64,000 bases of DNA, from contig CAVXVB010000009.1 of assembly GCA_963765205.1 (NCBI GenBank), positions 448,001-512,000 of the forward strand. Reading direction: 5' to 3'. Position numbers and translations under genes: made by a program. The stretch is from an uncultured Verrucomicrobiae bacterium (GTDB taxonomy: Bacteria > Verrucomicrobiota > Verrucomicrobiia > Opitutales > JABDGR01). Below, piece by piece: positions 20,964 to 28,871 of the stretch; position 1 is the stretch's first letter; the number at the start of each line of letters is the position of its first letter. The notes under the pieces are model-generated. The model saw nothing but the letters and a program-made list of their open reading frames with translations. It ran no database searches and was not told the origin of the DNA.

Positions 20964-22160
20964 TCACCGCAATTCCACGCTCCGCCCCTCGGCTGCGGAA
21001 AGATACGCGGCGTAAATGACGTTCACGCATTCCACTGCGAGATCTATACCCGAGCGCGGCTCCCGGCCTTCCCGGATCGCGCCCACAAAATCCGCGATTT
21101 CCTGCGCGAAGCCGCGAAACCAGTCCTCGTCGCAACTCGGCCGGTTCCAGCCAGCTTTGGTTTCGAGCTTTTCGGTGAAATACTCGCTTTCGAAAACCGC
21201 CGGGGTGGGGGCGTAGGTTTCGATGGCATCGTTGGCCGTCAAGTTGGCCTTGATGACCCCGTCGGTCATAAACGCGGTGACGCGGGTGTTCAAACCGCCC
21301 AGTCCCGCATCACTCACAATGACGCTGGCCCGCGTGCCGTCCTCGAACCGGATGACGAGGTTGGCCCAGTTTTCCACGTCCACCGGATTCGCGCTGATCC
21401 ACGCGTGCGCCCCCGCCTGGCGCGCCAGCGCGGATGCCTCGCTTTGCATCAGGTCGGCCGTGTCCGCCAGGACGGACACCGCGCGGATGCCCCGGCCCCG
21501 TCGCACCTGGCCCTCCCATTCTTTGAGATGCAGGCATGCGCCCACGGAATGCACCCCCATCCGCAGCAGCGCGCCGCCGCCGGTGTGCTTCCACTCGCGC
21601 GAAAACACCGAGTTGGAACCGGAATGGTTTTCCTCCGCGCGCAGTTCGAGGACCGACCCCTTGGCCGCCGCAATCAGCCGGCGCATTTTGTCAATCGGCG
21701 GGGCGTAAACCCAGTTTTCCGCGTAACAAAAGCGCACTCCCGCCCGTGCGACCGCGGCCCGCACCGCCTCGGCATTGCGCCACGCGCCCTCCCACATCCG
21801 GCGGCGCGGCACCATCCGCCCGATCGGTTCGGGGTTCCCCGGCTCGCCAAAATAACCCGTCAACGGCTTCTCCATGATAATGTGCTTGCCCGCCTCGGCG
21901 GCGCGAATCGCGAACTCGTGGTGCAGCGCGGGCGGCACGCACAGGTCAACGACCTCAATGTCCGGCCGCGCGAGCAACGCGGCAAAATCCTCCGTGACAA
22001 AGTCCACGCCGGCCTCCTGCGCGAGCGCCGCGGCGCTGGCTTGGGTCCGCGCGCAAACCCCGCGCACCTCGACCAGGCCCTTGGGCAGCTTGGCGTAATT
22101 AGCCAGATGCATCCGCGCCCCATAACGGGCGCCCACCAGGCCGATGCCAAGAGTGTTCAT
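20964..22160 (-). CDS. Gfo/Idh/MocA-family oxidoreductase
   Basis: IGLVGA Rossmann start, AGKHIIMEKPL, GGGALLRMGVH, DVEN. Confidence 0.9.
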   Translation of the reverse strand: MNTLGIGLVGARYGARMHLANYAKLPKGLVEVRGVCARTQASAAALAQEAGVDFVTEDFAALLARPDIEVVDLCVPPALHHEFAIRAAEAGKHIIMEKPLTGYFGEPGNPEPIGRMVPRRRMWEGAWRNAEAVRAAVARAGVRFCYAENWVYAPPIDKMRRLIAAAKGSVLELRAEENHSGSNSVFSREWKHTGGGALLRMGVHSVGACLHLKEWEGQVRRGRGIRAVSVLADTADLMQSEASALARQAGAHAWISANPVDVENWANLVIRFEDGTRASVIVSDAGLGGLNTRVTAFMTDGVIKANLTANDAIETYAPTPAVFESEYFTEKLETKAGWNRPSCDEDWFRGFAQEIADFVGAIREGREPRSGIDLAVECVNVIYAAYLSAAEGRSVELR

Positions 22161-22336: not shown

Positions 22337-22465
22337 GAGACACAACCTGCTGGGCAAAAAATATTTCTGAGCCTCCACAGCAACATAATGGGCATCCCCC
22401 TACTTTGCATACGCCGCCTGGGCGCCTTTGATGTTGCGTTTGGGGACCCAGGGCATGAGGGCGCG
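22337..22465 (-). repeat. Displaced ilvC 3' tail, copy A (22400-22465), plus shared 63-bp downstream sequence
   Basis: 59/66 nt identical to 27179-27244, all 7 differences synonymous ([21 protein letters not shown]); 22337-22399 is about 80% identical to 26857-26919. Confidence 0.92.
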
Positions 22466-22629
22466 CCGAACACCTTTAAGCCCGTTGCGTCCAGTACGCT
22501 TAACCCCTCGCTCAACCCCTCGGCTGGACATCTCTAAAAAACAACTTCCCATCCGTTTACCTGCCACCCGGGCATAAAGGGTCGTCTACTTGGTGGCCGA
22601 TCGGACCAGGCCGTTGCAGACTTCACTCA

Positions 22630-23901
22630 TCATTCAAAAGCATCCACATACCAAGTGCCATTGATTCTCTTCCAACGCACCATGGTTTTGCCATCCGTCG
22701 GTTGCGAAAGCTTGTAGGTGGCCAGATCGCCGGTCGCGTCATATTCCGGCGTCTCTGTCTGGGCGGCGGACGTGGCATCAATCATCATTTTTATCGTGTT
22801 CGGGAAATCAGGGTTTTGCTGAAGCGTCTCCATCACTTGTTGGCCCGACATCGTCGGGGGCAATTGCAGGTAAGAATCAAAGGCCAAGGGATAGTCACCG
22901 GATTGAAGCAGGTTGACAAAATCATTCATCGCCGTGCCGATTTCGGAACGAGGGTCACTCGCCACCGCCTGCGTTGCGATGGCCGGAGTTTCCACGACTG
23001 CCTCCGACACCGGGGCGGGCGGGGCCACCGGCGCGACCACTTGCGCGGGACTCTTGGTTGGGACCGGGAGAACCGCAATGGCGGGCGCAGGAGGCGGACG
23101 CGGAACCTCAGAGACCGGCCGCTCGTTCACGTCCTGCCATTTAATGGCGAAGTTAAGGACGAGAAGAACAAGGACGACACTAGCGAGTGCAATTTTGGTC
23201 TTGGTGCTCATAAAAAACGCCAAAAATAAGGCCTGCAATGTTCCCCCAGCGAGGCTGGCGCCGCCGCCTGCGAGCGAGATGGCCGTAGCCTTTTTGGCCA
23301 GCCCAACGGGGGCGGCCTGAACCGAGTTCATTGTGAGGGCCGAGGCCAGCAGGGACGCGGACGTGGTGACCCCGCGGGAAACAAAATGGGCGCGCAGTTT
23401 TTCCAAGGCGCGCTCCACGCGCTTGTTGGCGGAATTTTCACTCAGGCCGAGGATGGCGCCGACTTCCTGATGGCTCAGGCCGTTGAAAAAACGCAGCAAA
23501 ACCGCCTGGCGGTCGCGTTCGCCGAGCCGCTCGACCGCTTCGTCGAGCAGCGGGCCGATTTCCGCCCAGTGGGCCGGCGGGGTGATCTGGTCATTTTGCA
23601 TGGTGACGGCCTCCTGTTCGCGCGCGCGGCGGCGGGCTTCGCCGCGAATCGCGTCAATGGCGCGATGCCGCGCATTGATGTGCAACCAGCAGACGGGGGT
23701 GATGTAATGGCGCAGCCGCCCGGCCTCGCGGGCGAACTTGGTGAAGACGGCCTGGGTGACATCCTCGGCCAAATGCGGATCCCGGCTGACGCGCAGGGCC
23801 ACGGAATAGACCAGATCAGTCTGCCGGCGGACGAGTTCGGCAAAGGCCGCCTCGTCGCCCTGCTCGACATACTGGCGCAATAACTCGCGGTCGGTGGTCA
23901 T
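22630..23901 (-). CDS. ECF sigma factor with C-terminal TM helix and extracytoplasmic extension
   Basis: DRELLRQY...DEAAFAELVRR, AEDVTQAVF, sigma4 region LRFF..SHQEVG..LGLSE; TM helix IALASVVLVLLVLNF. Confidence 0.88.
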   Translation of the reverse strand: MTTDRELLRQYVEQGDEAAFAELVRRQTDLVYSVALRVSRDPHLAEDVTQAVFTKFAREAGRLRHYITPVCWLHINARHRAIDAIRGEARRRAREQEAVTMQNDQITPPAHWAEIGPLLDEAVERLGERDRQAVLLRFFNGLSHQEVGAILGLSENSANKRVERALEKLRAHFVSRGVTTSASLLASALTMNSVQAAPVGLAKKATAISLAGGGASLAGGTLQALFLAFFMSTKTKIALASVVLVLLVLNFAIKWQDVNERPVSEVPRPPPAPAIAVLPVPTKSPAQVVAPVAPPAPVSEAVVETPAIATQAVASDPRSEIGTAMNDFVNLLQSGDYPLAFDSYLQLPPTMSGQQVMETLQQNPDFPNTIKMMIDATSAAQTETPEYDATGDLATYKLSQPTDGKTMVRWKRINGTWYVDAFE

Positions 23902-23918
23902 CGTTTGTCTTTACCCAT

Positions 23919-23946
23919 ATACGACACCCGCCGCAAAAACCTGACA
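23919..23946 (-). promoter_or_regulatory. Candidate autoregulatory ECF promoter
   Basis: Minus strand TGTCAG-N16-TCGTAT directly upstream of the ECF start. Confidence 0.3.
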
Positions 23947-24207
23947 AAAATCGTCAATTTACCCCCTCCCGGCCCCCGGTAACCTCAAAAAAGCGATTCC
24001 CTTTCAGTTGTCAAAATCATGATGAGTGCAAGCCAACAGAGTTTGCGAACTACCCCTGTCTGGCTTTCGTCAACTACAAAACTTAAAACCTGACCCCTTC
24101 CGGGTTCCCGAATGGCTGAAAAAACAAGTCTTGTTCTGGCAATGACGTTCGTCAAATACTTCGGCAGCATAAAGCATGGGCGCTGGCGAATGCGGCGAAA
24201 TAATAAC

Positions 24208-24810
24208 TCATTGAGAAATTGGAGGTAGTTCCGCGCGCATATCAGCGTCGTGCGCAATCAACTTGGCCTTTGCGGTCTCGAATACATCCCGCATAGCATC
24301 AATATATTCTGCGCTTTTATTTTCATTTCTAGCCATGGACAGTTGGCTCATTTCGTCGGATGAAAAATCTGCCTCGTCAGAAGTTAATTGATTATAGAAA
24401 TTTTTAATGTCACCCGGCAAAGCTTGTGCCGCAAATTCGTTCGTTTCTGCAAGGGCGACATCTGATTTAAGGTTTTTGAAATCTAAATCACGCAAGTCAC
24501 CCATCTGGCTAAGACGTAAAAACTCTTCTGCGTCTATGCGCCCCTGATCATGATCCGAAACTTTACTCGTTTCGGCAACCTGCTGAACGTTTTGATTGTG
24601 CCAAAAAATTAGGGCAATTACACCAAATAAAACGACAAGCCGAATCATCCAGGATAAAAAACTGGTTCTCTGACTTTCTATGGGTGGTGAATTCTCTTCT
24701 TTGCTTATGGGCTTGGGCGCGTGTTCTTCAAAAGATTCACCATGAAGTTCACGGTAGCTTTCCTGGTCGTCTCGGGAAAGGCGCAAAAACTCGTCGTGAG
24801 TAAGTTTCAT
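24208..24810 (-). CDS. Hypothetical single-TM protein (low GC)
   Basis: 200-aa ORF in AT-rich DNA with one hydrophobic helix (WMIRLVVLFGVIALIFW). Confidence 0.6.
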   Translation of the reverse strand: MKLTHDEFLRLSRDDQESYRELHGESFEEHAPKPISKEENSPPIESQRTSFLSWMIRLVVLFGVIALIFWHNQNVQQVAETSKVSDHDQGRIDAEEFLRLSQMGDLRDLDFKNLKSDVALAETNEFAAQALPGDIKNFYNQLTSDEADFSSDEMSQLSMARNENKSAEYIDAMRDVFETAKAKLIAHDADMRAELPPISQ

Positions 24811-25583
24811 CGCGATTAGAATGGGGTAACGTTAAGATAGCATAGCTCGCATGGCTGTAAAAACAAGCTTTGTTCACGCCAGCTTGGGAGCGCATTAAGG
24901 GTTAGGCTCGAAACTTTTCAAGAACTCAATTGTGTTTGAATATTTCCTTTTATGGTCTTCATTGTCTGTGGAATTTTCCATTTTTTCGAGTGCTTCCAAA
25001 TAGGGATTGCCTCCGACAACCGGCATTATTGATCCTGGCCCCATGAGATACGCTACAACATCCTCCCTTTCAAAAGTATGATTTTTCCGATTCTTGAATT
25101 CTGCGTTCCATCGCCTGTAGTAGAGATCGCTCAAGGGCTGATCAGTCTCAGCCATTCTTTTTAACGCTGAGGGGTGCAGCACAAAGCCTAACCAGTTAAA
25201 TTTTTCACCATATTCGCAAGCCTCGACGAGGGCTTTCCCAAGAAAAAGGCTGTTTGCCTTATCCCCATAAAAATCACCAAAAGTAACTGCCCCGCGTGAT
25301 GGGATTCCGGCGATGGTGAGTTCGTCGAAAAAAAATCTCGAAAATTGGGCTACGGTGCGAAATGAATTTTTAGAGTCGTCCGATGAATAAATAATGATGG
25401 TATCCGAGAACCAGGCAAACTCTGCATGTTGATTAAAATGTGACTCCCTCCGTGCAGTTTCCAAGTAAACGCAAGTGTCATGAAACACACTGATCAGGTT
25501 ACTTTTCCTTGTATAATCTCCGAATCCCAATCGGTCGAAATATGCGACCCATCGCTTCCCGCCCATCTTGGAATTATAATCTA

Positions 25584-26796
25584 GGGCACTTCTAACAACT
25601 TGGCTTGGGCCACACAAGGGTAATTTTGCGTGATTTTCTAGCGGCATCCGGGAGGGAAGCGCCCGGCATGAGTTGCCCGCGGTGGTTTGGCGGGATGATG
25701 AGTGGGTTTCTTGCTCTGAACCGGCAGCGGGGCGCGATTCGTCCGGCTCTAACCGGCACTTTGCAGCCAGGCGTAGCGGTCAAGGTTGTAAACCAGGTTG
25801 GCCAGGCCGATTTCAAAACGGGCGCGGGCCAAACCTTTGCGGCGGAACCAGTCTGCCCGCCAGTGGGCCAGCCGGGCGAAGACGTGCTCGACCCGGCTGC
25901 GGACGGCGCTTTGGCGGCGGTTGCGTTTTTCCTGCGCGCGGGTCAGCGGATGGCCGCGCCGCGCTTTTTCCAGGATGCGCCCGGCGAGCTTTTTGGTCGC
26001 GAGTTGTTTCGCGATGGGCCCGCCGCTGTAGGCGCTGTCGGCGTAAATGACGCGGTCGCCGGGCGCGGCCAGCTCGTCGAGTTTTTGGCTGTCGTGGGTG
26101 TTGGCGGGGGTCACCGTGTAGTCCGCCACGAGCTTGCTGCGCGCGTCGGCCTTGGCGTGGTTTTTGTAACCGTAGTGCGCCTGGCCGCCTTGCTCGGTCC
26201 AGCGGGCGTCGGCGTCCTGCTGCCGCGCGGCGGGGGGATGCTCCGGCTGGCGCGCGGCGCGCGGGCGCGGGGCCTCGACAAACGTGGCGTCCACGATCTT
26301 GCCCTGCTGGCCGATCAGCCCCCGCGCGGCCAGTTGCGCGTTGAACAACTCGAACAACGCCCGCACCCCGTCCGGGCCGAGGCGCTCCTTGAACACCCAG
26401 ATCGTCTTCTCGTCCGGCGCGGCGTCGCCCGCCCGCAGGCCCATGAACCGCTGGAAGCTGAACCGATCGAGGATTTGAAACTCGGTCTGCGCGTCGCTCA
26501 GCCCGTGGAACTTTTGCAGCACCAGCACCTGGAACATCAGCACCGGATCCCACGCCGGACGCCCGCCTTTGGCCCCGTCCTCATAGGCCAGGTGGCGCTC
26601 GAGTGGGGCGCGGAAGGCTTCCCAGTCCACCGCCGCCTTCAGCCGGTCCAGACTCGTGCCCCGCGCCGCCAACCCGGCGCAATGCTGGTGATAATCGAAC
26701 AAACCTCCTTGCGACTCGGATTTTCGGTAGTGCATGTCACGTTCTGTCACCTTGTCTTATCAATGTCAAGCGGCTTGGGGGTTAATAGAGGCGCCC
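25584..26796 (-). mobile_element. IS5-family insertion sequence (1213 bp)
   Basis: Imperfect terminal IRs GGGCACTTCTAACAAC / GGGCGCCTCTATTAAC (12/16); TCTA duplicated at 25580-83 and 26797-800; empty site restores a reading frame. Confidence 0.9.
25749..26735 (-). CDS. IS5-family DDE transposase
   Basis: GGRPAWD, LSDAQTE..ILDRFSF, PDEKTIW, IVDAT, YGYKNH, ADSAY, RSRVEHVF. Confidence 0.93.
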   Translation of the reverse strand: MHYRKSESQGGLFDYHQHCAGLAARGTSLDRLKAAVDWEAFRAPLERHLAYEDGAKGGRPAWDPVLMFQVLVLQKFHGLSDAQTEFQILDRFSFQRFMGLRAGDAAPDEKTIWVFKERLGPDGVRALFELFNAQLAARGLIGQQGKIVDATFVEAPRPRAARQPEHPPAARQQDADARWTEQGGQAHYGYKNHAKADARSKLVADYTVTPANTHDSQKLDELAAPGDRVIYADSAYSGGPIAKQLATKKLAGRILEKARRGHPLTRAQEKRNRRQSAVRSRVEHVFARLAHWRADWFRRKGLARARFEIGLANLVYNLDRYAWLQSAG

Positions 26797-26856
26797 TCTA
26801 GTTGTTCCATCGATGTTAGTCATCTTCGGAGTTTGTTTTGAACTGCAATGAACATA

Positions 26857-26958
26857 GATACCCAACCCCGCTGGTCAAAACAGATTTTTGAGCCTCCACT
26901 GCAATATAATGGCATCCCGCTATTTTTCATAGGCCCCCTGGGCGTTTTTGAGGTTGCG
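26857..26958 (-). repeat. Displaced ilvC 3' tail, copy B (26920-26958), plus shared downstream sequence
   Basis: RNLKNAQGAYEK* vs ilv[13 protein letters not shown]; 32/39 nt identical to copy A and contiguous with the 63-bp shared flank. Confidence 0.8.
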
Positions 26959-27123
26959 GCGGCTGGCTTCAATCAGGGTCACGGCGGCATCGAGCCAGTC
27001 CAGACGTTGCGCCGGGGACAAGCGTGCAAATTCCGTATGGCCGTCGTAGTCCTCGGGGCGGGAGCGCGCGATGGCCTCTCGCACCGCCGCGAGATCAATA
27101 TCTGCGAGGTGGTCGTTTTCCAT
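26920..27123 (-). CDS. Small 67-aa hypothetical protein whose C-terminus is the ilvC tail copy B
   Basis: ATG 27123 preceded by AGAAGG; MENDHLADIDL...LSPAQRLDWL...NAQGAYEK. Confidence 0.6.
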   Translation of the reverse strand: MENDHLADIDLAAVREAIARSRPEDYDGHTEFARLSPAQRLDWLDAAVTLIEASRRNLKNAQGAYEK

Positions 27124-27131
27124 GCTGCCTT

Positions 27132-27162
27132 CTACCTCCTGCCTCCCACCTGCCACCTCCTC
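27132..27162. repeat. Degenerate heptamer array just downstream of the ilvC stop
   Basis: ctacctc ctgcctc ccacctg ccacctc. Confidence 0.55.
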
Positions 27163-27178
27163 CATTCCGTCACCCCCC

Positions 27179-28210
27179 CTACTTCGCATAAGCGGCCTGG
27201 GCGCCTTTGATATTCCGTTTCGGCACCCAGGGCATGAGGGCGCGGAGGCGCTGGCCGGTTTTTTCGATGGGGTGCTTTTCTCCTTCCGCAAGGAGGCGTT
27301 TGTAATTTTTCAGGCCGCTTTTGTATTCGGCGACCCATTGTCTGGTGAATTGGCCGCTTTGGATTTCCTTGAGGATTTTCTTCATGGCCGCGCGCGAGGA
27401 TTTGTTGATGACGCGGGGGCCGCGGGTGATGTCGCCATATTTGGCGGTTTCGGAAATCGAGAATCTCATGCCGGAGATGCCGGATTCGACCATGAGGTCC
27501 ACGATGAGTTTCAATTCGTGGAGGCACTCGAAGTAGGCCATTTCGGGCTGGTACCCGGCGGCGACGAGGGTCTCGAAGCCGGCCCTGACGAGTTCGGTGG
27601 CGCCGCCGCAGAGCACGGCTTGCTCGCCGAAGAGGTCGGTTTCGCATTCTTCCTTGAAGGAGGTTTGCAGGACGCCGGCGCGGGTGGCGCCGATGCCTTT
27701 GGCCCAGGCGAGGGCGATTTTCTTGGCGTCCTTGGTGGCGTCGGTGTGGACGGCGATGAGCGCGGGGACGCCTTTGCCTTCGAGGTATTGGGCGCGGACG
27801 ATGTGGCCGGGGCCTTTGGGGGCGACCATGATGACGTTGACGCCGGCAGGGGGCTTGATGAGGCCGAAATGGATGCTGAGGCCGTGCGTGAAGAGGAGGG
27901 TCTTGCCGGGCGCGAGGCTGGGGGCGATGTCCGTCTCATAAACGCCGGGCTGGCGCATGTCGGGGACGCCGACCATGATGACGTCGGCGCGGCGCACGGC
28001 CTCGGCGGTGGGATAGACGGCGAAGCCTTTTTCTTCGGCGACTTTCCAGGACTGGCTGCCGGGATAGAGGCCGATGATGACTTGCGCGCCGCTGTCCTTG
28101 AGGTTGAGGGCGTGGGCGTGGCCTTGGGAACCGAAGCCGATGATGGCGAGGGTCTTGTTGTTCAACACGCCGAGGTCGGCGTCTTTGTCGGTGTAGACTT
28201 TGGCGGGCAT
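27179..28210 (-). CDS. ilvC: Ketol-acid reductoisomerase
   Basis: [53 protein letters not shown]. Confidence 0.97.
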
Positions 28211-28776: not shown

Positions 28777-28797
28777 GGGGGCCGGGTCCGCACGGGG

Positions 28798-28871
28798 TGG
28801 ACGGCACAGGACTCGAACCTGTGACTTCCTGCGTGTAAAGCAGGCGCTCTAACCAACTGAGCTAGCCGTCC
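28798..28871 (-). tRNA. tRNA-Val(TAC)
   Basis: GGACGGC acceptor stem, TAGCTCAGTTGGTTAGAGC D-arm, CCTGC-TTTACAC-GCAGG anticodon arm, GGTTCGAGTCC T-arm; CCA not encoded. Confidence 0.96.

Follow-up and report, generated by a model that had tools for sequence, protein, structure and literature searches.

Genomic islands and cis-mobilisable elements that occupy the 3' ends of coding genes leave a displaced gene end, accrete in tandem and may persist as integrase-less remnants, and they need a fixed attachment (att) core and a cognate integrase; an att site may lie within a coding gene, as in the case of icd/e14. Comparable structures have also been described in the absence of an integrase. In an experiment with E. 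coli, partial duplications of 109–950 bp were present in 56 of 60 clones and were ascribed by the authors to trimming, re-circularisation and a single crossover, a route that the available text gives as ten times commoner than homology-facilitated illegitimate recombination (HFIR) (PMC3240628). Insertions with long target duplication are characterised, in the accessible part of the report, by an insert of less than 20 kb, no integrase, and unique, variable direct repeats of more than 30 bp that often span start or stop sites such that the gene stays intact; they were described for restriction-modification genes and their mechanism is not proven (Furuta, Abe and Kobayashi 2010, PMC2853133). Displacement arrays, comprising type VI secretion system effector-immunity arrays of V. 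cholerae and orphan 3' ends of Rhs genes, were attributed to HFIR in the text available (Kirchberger et al. 2017, PMC5361080), while the accessible text of PMC13617665 describes the entry of integrase-free genes such as toxin-antitoxin pairs into chromosomes as still open. In this study, we analysed the 3' end of ilvC (encoding ketol-acid reductoisomerase) and the interval beyond it in a stretch of 64,000 nucleotides (nt) from an uncultured Verrucomicrobiae bacterium of the order Opitutales (G000:C9:448001-512000, hereafter the window), where displaced copies of the end of this gene occur. The window lies on a 1.5-Mb contig of a 4.0-Mb genome (92% complete, 0.05% contamination), and matching DNA is present in soil metagenome runs.

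The intact ilvC gene (27179..28210, minus strand, as are all features of the interval given below; 343 amino acids, Pfam KARI_N and KARI_C) is followed, in minus-strand order, by a 55-nt spacer, an open reading frame (ORF) of 67 amino acids ending in a decayed ilvC tail (copy B), a 63-nt block (X'), a cyclase-fold gene split by an IS5-family element, genes for a membrane protein and an extracytoplasmic function (ECF) sigma factor, a second ilvC tail (copy A), a further 63-nt block (X) and a Gfo/Idh/MocA oxidoreductase gene, such that about 4.7–4.8 kb of extra DNA separates the ilvC stop codon from copy A. Copy A (22400..22465) corresponds to the last 22 codons of ilvC and encodes the same peptide as the present end (27179..27244). 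The two match at 59 of 66 nt (genome-wide E=6.5e-19): the first 20 nt are identical, and all seven differences beyond them are at third positions and synonymous, an outcome that neutral decay would give with a probability of 6e-5. This repeat with wobble-only differences had been noticed in an earlier reading of the window (the sequence-only reading), as had the third, more diverged copy, copy B (26920..26958), and the differing breakpoints of the two displaced tails (66 versus 39 nt); all three observations were borne out. Over its 39 nt, copy B shares 82% identity with the ilvC end (E=3e-4) and 82% with copy A, carries non-synonymous changes (RNLKNAQGAYEK versus the 12-residue ilvC counterpart), and differs within the last 24 nt at four positions from copy A and at six from the present end. 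The sequence-only reading had both tails followed by the same sequence of about 63 bp; a block does follow each (X, 22337..22398; X', 26857..26918, the latter overlapping a sigma-70-like site), but the two blocks are 82.5% identical rather than the same. Within the genome, the 66-nt tail has three copies and the block two, all at the ilvC locus. Homology of X extending past 63 nt was not significant (p=0.057), X was found by BLAST in none of nine genomes of the family, and the counts of promoters and terminators were no higher than in shuffled sequence. X is likely to represent the ilvC-downstream spacer of this lineage.

Codon usage suggests that copy A is probably the native ilvC end and that the present end is probably donor-derived. 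Copy A differs at 2 of 66 nt from the working ilvC end of metagenome loci L052/L056, which carry the closest ilvC found (89% identity in the gene body), while the present end differs from it at 7 of 66. Judged by the codon usage of this genome's own ilvC body, copy A is favoured over the present end by a likelihood ratio of approximately 1,700, which drops to 3 under genome-wide codon usage. The present end employs CCG, CGG and GCT, none of which occur in the ilvC body, and shows the poorest codon fit to its own gene body among 11 ilvC genes. The closeness of copy A to a functional end supports the supposition of the sequence-only reading that it was once a working ilvC end.

Displaced ends at other genes, for which the sequence-only reading had advised a genome-wide check, were indeed found. 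Our own codon-model gene caller predicted 2792 genes with a minimum length of 300 nt; each was compared with 15 kb on either side, and low-copy matches of up to 200 nt were kept. This yielded 82 matches, 62 of which were inside coding DNA and were set aside; 13 of the 20 orphan fragments left touch a gene end, versus 0.56 expected. Twelve of these 13 display a gene-preserving polarity, i.e. a tail downstream or a head upstream of the gene (p=0.0017), the remaining one being a head located downstream. The 12 scars are made up of six displaced tails (ilvC, fabG, rny, a HAD hydrolase gene, a STAS-like gene and C9_1468391) and six displaced heads (hemL, a carbonic anhydrase (CA)-like gene, gltX, C7_125250, C9_743769 and C9_761227), most gene names being assigned by eye from the sequence and hemL being confirmed by TIGR00713. 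Two are doubtful: C9_761227 could be a paralogue that has decayed, and a recombinase is found 9.7 kb from C9_1468391. At 11 of the 12 sites, no recombinase is present within 50 kb on the contig. The copies span 30–110 nt of coding DNA with differing breakpoints, the target genes are unrelated, and the cargo amounts to 0.6–4.8 kb and is often toxin-antitoxin-like. Repeats at PadR, C4_117292 and C5_254846 were dropped, as they represent paralogue pairs.

The divergence of the copies is enriched in synonymous changes. Among 16 pairs (11 of the 12 scars, with C9_761227 left out, together with clpP and four pairs from relatives), 52 synonymous and 57 non-synonymous changes were counted, against an expected synonymous fraction of 0.26 (p=7e-7). 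In nine of ten tail cases homology ends at the stop codon or no more than 5 nt from it. Two sites have an empty counterpart in relatives: the displaced fabG end and acpP match an uninterrupted fabG-acpP arrangement in G007 and G009, and in four of eight relatives the HAD gene directly precedes the gene found in G000 just beyond the displaced HAD tail. At fabG (G000:C5:164338-164985) a YafQ-like toxin-antitoxin pair stands between fabG and acpP and the displaced tail, which is of the ancestral type, immediately precedes acpP, while the HAD site (G000:C9:964676-965557) holds a ParE-like pair and a 72-nt displaced tail, both pairs being named by eye. Additionally, a 92-nt rny tail is located behind a PAS-like sensor gene (G000:C5:528026-530440), and the region upstream of hemL (G000:C5:259600-260825), which varies among the seven relatives examined, contains a displaced head of this gene together with two toxin-antitoxin-like pairs; of the two hemL heads, the displaced one is the closer to the G003 allele. 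KaiC/KaiB-like and response-regulator genes (by eye) separate a further displaced head from its gene (G000:C7:127388-132300), and for gltX no match in relatives was obtained at the search threshold used. At clpP-clpX (G000:C9:1420846-1421193) the clpP tail, spacer and clpX head are duplicated with no cargo. This duplication yields an ORF of 64–69 amino acids in which all four cysteines of the N-terminal zinc domain of ClpX are retained and which could function as a small protein.

Three relatives (1.54 Mb) contained four scars in 1115 genes (one in 344 in G003, three in 283 in G008 and none in G004), including a prfB scar in G003 in which five of six changes are synonymous. In a genome of another family (L176, G232:C2), a nucleotidyltransferase-like module with a member of the same small-ORF family as the 67-residue ORF is accompanied by a 162-nt, 77% identical duplication of the tail of the upstream gene. 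The ilvC locus exemplifies a class of probable recombination scars that occurs family-wide.

The DNA 3' of ilvC is a tolerant and variable spot. In seven of nine family genomes ilvC lies directly before cobA/hemD, with a low-GC insert between them in G007 and other genes in G003, and a displaced ilvC tail was found in none of the nine. Ten metagenome loci add three more lineages with other cargo 3' of ilvC; at L054 this consists of a nucleotidyltransferase-like gene and a relative of the window's 67-residue ORF. Relatives do not share a fixed gene set here, the cargo being different at 6 of 13 distinct family-like loci. A search of 221 genomes with a 40-residue query from the ilvC tail gave matches in 149; the query does not detect copy B, and short or decayed tails therefore escape it. 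Two of the 149 gave double matches and, among the matches listed, G000 alone carries a displaced tail. The second match in G203 was ruled out as a displaced tail because ilvC-like codons run on towards the contig start, and a tail-only match in G115 was likewise discarded, ilvC being cut by the contig end. Since the displaced tail occurs in 1 of 149 genomes and the same scar is present at 11 other genes, half of them as heads, ilvC does not appear to be a special docking site. The dedicated landing pad proposed in the sequence-only reading is not supported by these data, nor is the recombinase acting in trans that was to drive it, and the accompanying expectation that older tails are pushed farther out is at odds with the greater decay of the inner copy B compared to the outer copy A. 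In G000 the cobA/hemD gene, the usual neighbour of ilvC in the family, is found at C9:1180331, approximately 700 kb away and with short tandem repeats before it, the ilvC-cobA link having been broken by rearrangement in this genome.

We assign a probability of roughly 0.5 to the explanation that the leftover ilvC ends are scars that arose when DNA of related bacteria integrated by a single (Campbell-type) crossover, without an integrase; recombination guided by homology was also the mechanism that the sequence-only reading had considered, and in this respect it agrees with the best reading of the present data. A donor fragment comprising the donor's adjoining genes and a conserved gene end trimmed to a short remnant would close into a circle and cross over once within the short shared stretch, whereupon the gene would be intact with the donor's end, followed by the cargo, with the old end left beyond it. 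In the latest event at ilvC, the present end and the whole 4.8-kb block would have arrived and native copy A would have been displaced, while copy B and X' probably represent an older scar, from an event in a sister lineage, that was carried within the donor block; the IS5 element would have inserted last. We infer the circle, the crossover, the order of events and the route of DNA entry; ComEC and DprA are present in G000, and also in 10–11 of 14 control genomes. Repeats as short and diverged as these would resist re-excision, and this would explain the restriction of surviving copies to 30–110 nt; a single circle would account for tails, heads and the cargo-free clpP-clpX duplication alike.

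Several observations weigh against single-crossover capture. Four runs of contigs yielded neither a circle nor a donor for the ilvC block, and the empty site, in which ilvC would be followed by X and Gfo, was not encountered in relatives, metagenome loci or the same four runs; the sequence-only reading had asked for both kinds of junction, and their absence from low-depth, fragmentary contigs does not show that they do not exist. The scar repeats are 30–70 nt long at 85–90% identity, versus 109–950 bp of identical DNA in the E. coli experiment. A Ku gene was not found in the genome (92% complete), which leaves the end-joining step unexplained. The distance to L056 is by itself ambiguous as to which ilvC end is native, and the changes in the STAS, clpP, CA and C7_125250 copies are mostly non-synonymous, so that these could be decayed self-duplications. 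Finally, none of 488 genes was scarred in G004 and none of 594 in G104 (another family, 0.8 Mb), where a hand calculation at the family rate gives about 2.4 expected.

The main rival, which we regard as possible but tentative, is HFIR, i.e. one-sided recombination of a linear fragment, in which the donor brings a new end plus cargo or, alternatively, a fragment bearing the empty site leaves an overhang. In the overhang form the fragment would be anchored in the far-side gene and the neighbour's tail or head would be left behind, so that the scars would mark deletions of addictive cargo that failed. The final structure would be identical, junctions are positioned from a few to 165 nt beyond the cargo ORFs, the cargo is toxin-antitoxin-like at fabG, the HAD gene, hemL and ilvC, and ComEC and DprA are encoded; furthermore, HFIR has already been proposed for displacement arrays in the text available (PMC5361080). 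According to the accessible part of PMC3240628, however, HFIR generally produces insertion with deletion and not duplication, and the overhang form requires a foreign copy A, which is contradicted by the codon test, and leaves clpP-clpX unexplained. The motif RNLKN, also carried by the small-ORF homologue P0002, would permit junction B to be a microhomology join, but the distance from stop codon to RNLKN in P0002 equals that in the ilvC tail, and the two may therefore be the same fusion rather than independent ones. It is doubtful, to return to circles, that the conserved ends of housekeeping genes constitute a distributed, integrase-independent cassette system in this family, in which re-excisable circles with toxin-antitoxin or other small cassettes would use the first or last 10–30 codons as their sole handle and leave approximately four scars per 1000 genes, perhaps with a dedicated host factor.

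Remnants of integrase-driven islands, in which cis-mobilisable elements would have accumulated at an att site within ilvC, X being an att arm and the integrase having been lost or supplied in trans, are unlikely because the breakpoints vary, the targets are unrelated and heads are displaced. The 20 identical nt followed by synonymous differences do resemble att sites in coding genes, and the genome has at least 15 tyrosine recombinases; nevertheless, copies A and B (66 versus 39 nt) do not share one fixed crossover core, six heads are displaced (integrases that target 3' ends do not make these), and a displaced tail was found in 1 of 149 genomes with a query that misses short or decayed tails. 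Moreover, X was not found in nine relatives and had no match in viral contigs (exact degenerate pattern), 10 of the 16 matches to tyrosine recombinases have a tRNA no more than about 6 kb away, and no integron integrase scored above the cut-off (TIGR02249, best E 2e-20). Neither a tyrosine or serine recombinase nor a remnant of one was detected in the interval, nor any such recombinase in the whole window, the nearest on the same contig being 246 kb away; the degraded integrase that would have made this an ordinary island, as the sequence-only reading had allowed, did not emerge. That reading had called the interval integrase-free, which holds for tyrosine and serine recombinases, but the IS5 transposase means that it is not recombinase-free.

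Local self-duplications that later decayed, with the cargo filled in by other routes, appear slightly more improbable still, since the copies diverge as alleles would. Old copies with mostly non-synonymous changes, the clpP-clpX duplication and the resemblance of copy B with X' to copy A with X would suit this explanation; on the other hand, 7 of 7 changes in copy A (p=6e-5) and 5 of 6 in prfB of G003 are synonymous, and it also speaks against this explanation that homology ends no more than 5 nt from the stop codon for 9 of 10 tails. A chimeric assembly that joined ilvC loci from two strains is highly improbable: although no run contig examined covers the full interval and the junction between the ECF sigma gene and copy A is overlapped by 8 nt only, the locus is on a 1.5-Mb contig with 0.05% contamination, a 417-nt run contig joins the ilvC stop codon to the small ORF with one difference, pieces from two studies match with no differences, and about a dozen similar sites occur in the genome.

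The contents of the interval were largely as listed in the sequence-only reading, except that the small ORF lies between ilvC and copy B and that the IS5 element had been overlooked. The spacer after ilvC (27124..27178) is purine-rich and similar to the short-repeat spacer after ilvC in G008. The 67-residue ORF (26920..27123), the C-terminus of which is formed by copy B, has homologues at L054, L060 and L175, and a search of genome contigs for its family gave at least one locus; elsewhere the family sits after a nucleotidyltransferase-like gene, a partner missing at the ilvC locus, and it is likely a toxin-antitoxin partner. The IS5-family element (25583..26797; 1215 bp, transposase ORF 25749-26750, Pfam DDE_Tnp_1 and DUF772), present in six identical genome copies and flanked by a 2-bp target duplication, splits the cyclase-fold gene behind codon 4, severing its first four codons (26798..26810, the position at which homologues start) from the body (24895..25582). 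It appears to be a recent passenger that arrived after the other events. As the origin of the displaced tails it was ruled out, having its own 2-bp duplication and lying 120 nt from copy B. The cyclase-fold gene (43% GC) is absent from nine relatives and its product has no Pfam, PADLOC or PDB sequence match; in its predicted fold (model predicted local distance difference test score of 91) it resembles class III adenylyl cyclases (Foldseek, template modelling score of about 0.55), and nucleotidyl-cyclase activity is putative. Cyclase-like genes are also located directly 3' of ilvC in two further lineages (L037, L053, L052/L056).

The membrane-protein gene (24208..24810; 200 amino acids with one hydrophobic stretch, 44% GC) belongs to no family in the Pfam scan. 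It is enclosed by a weak pair of 28-nt direct repeats (24848..24875 and 24109..24136; 86% identity, E=0.017), perhaps a third nested scar. The ECF sigma factor (22630..23901; Pfam) has a long C-terminal extension and many paralogues in the genome. A close match to the Gfo/Idh/MocA oxidoreductase (20964..22160; Pfam) is present in one of nine relatives, and this gene is thus itself accessory, so that the variable region reaches past copy A. A tRNA-Val(TAC) gene is located at 28796-28871, upstream of ilvN-ilvC.

We found no report in the open-access literature of ilvC as an integration site for a genomic island or integrase, nor of displaced-end scars at housekeeping genes of Verrucomicrobiota, and the accessible parts of PMC2884548, PMC13617665 and PMC13344027 do not describe the scar signature. 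Cis-mobilisable elements differ from the scars of G000 in that the latter have varying breakpoints and include displaced heads as frequently as displaced tails; an element of this kind was not found. Insertions with long target duplication, to judge from the text available, are matched at ilvC by the size of the insert (4.7 kb, i.e. below 20 kb) and by a unique duplication of 66 nt (above 30 bp), and the interval has no recombinase but does carry the later IS5 element with its own 2-bp duplication; an empty site is seen in relatives for fabG and the HAD gene and none was found for ilvC. Their repeats are near-identical (44/46) and their cargo is of the restriction-modification type, whereas G000 has diverged alleles and toxin-antitoxin-like, sensor, sigma and cyclase-fold cargo, Pfam and PADLOC scans of the ilvC interval revealing no restriction or modification genes. 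Displacement arrays, as far as the accessible text describes them, share with G000 the addition of modules at a conserved anchor, the shifting of older parts downstream and the lack of a known integrase; there, however, a toxin gene serves as the anchor and entire immunity genes are kept, while in G000 a housekeeping gene has this role and displacement involves only a few codons. The single-crossover integration in E. coli (Amarir-Bouhram et al. 2011), again from the text available, has in common with G000 the foreign DNA and the variable partial duplication of a gene end without a site-specific recombinase, but involves a laboratory plasmid and 109–950 bp of identical sequence, in contrast to natural scars of 30–110 nt that are 80–97% identical. 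A displaced 3' end alone does not count as evidence for an att site, and the scars provide a simple, countable signature that may tell which end is native and the rough age of each event. Processes of this kind are already known; in G000 the two copies represent distinct alleles, and both tails and heads are affected, observations that point to the capture of DNA from relatives by a single crossover.

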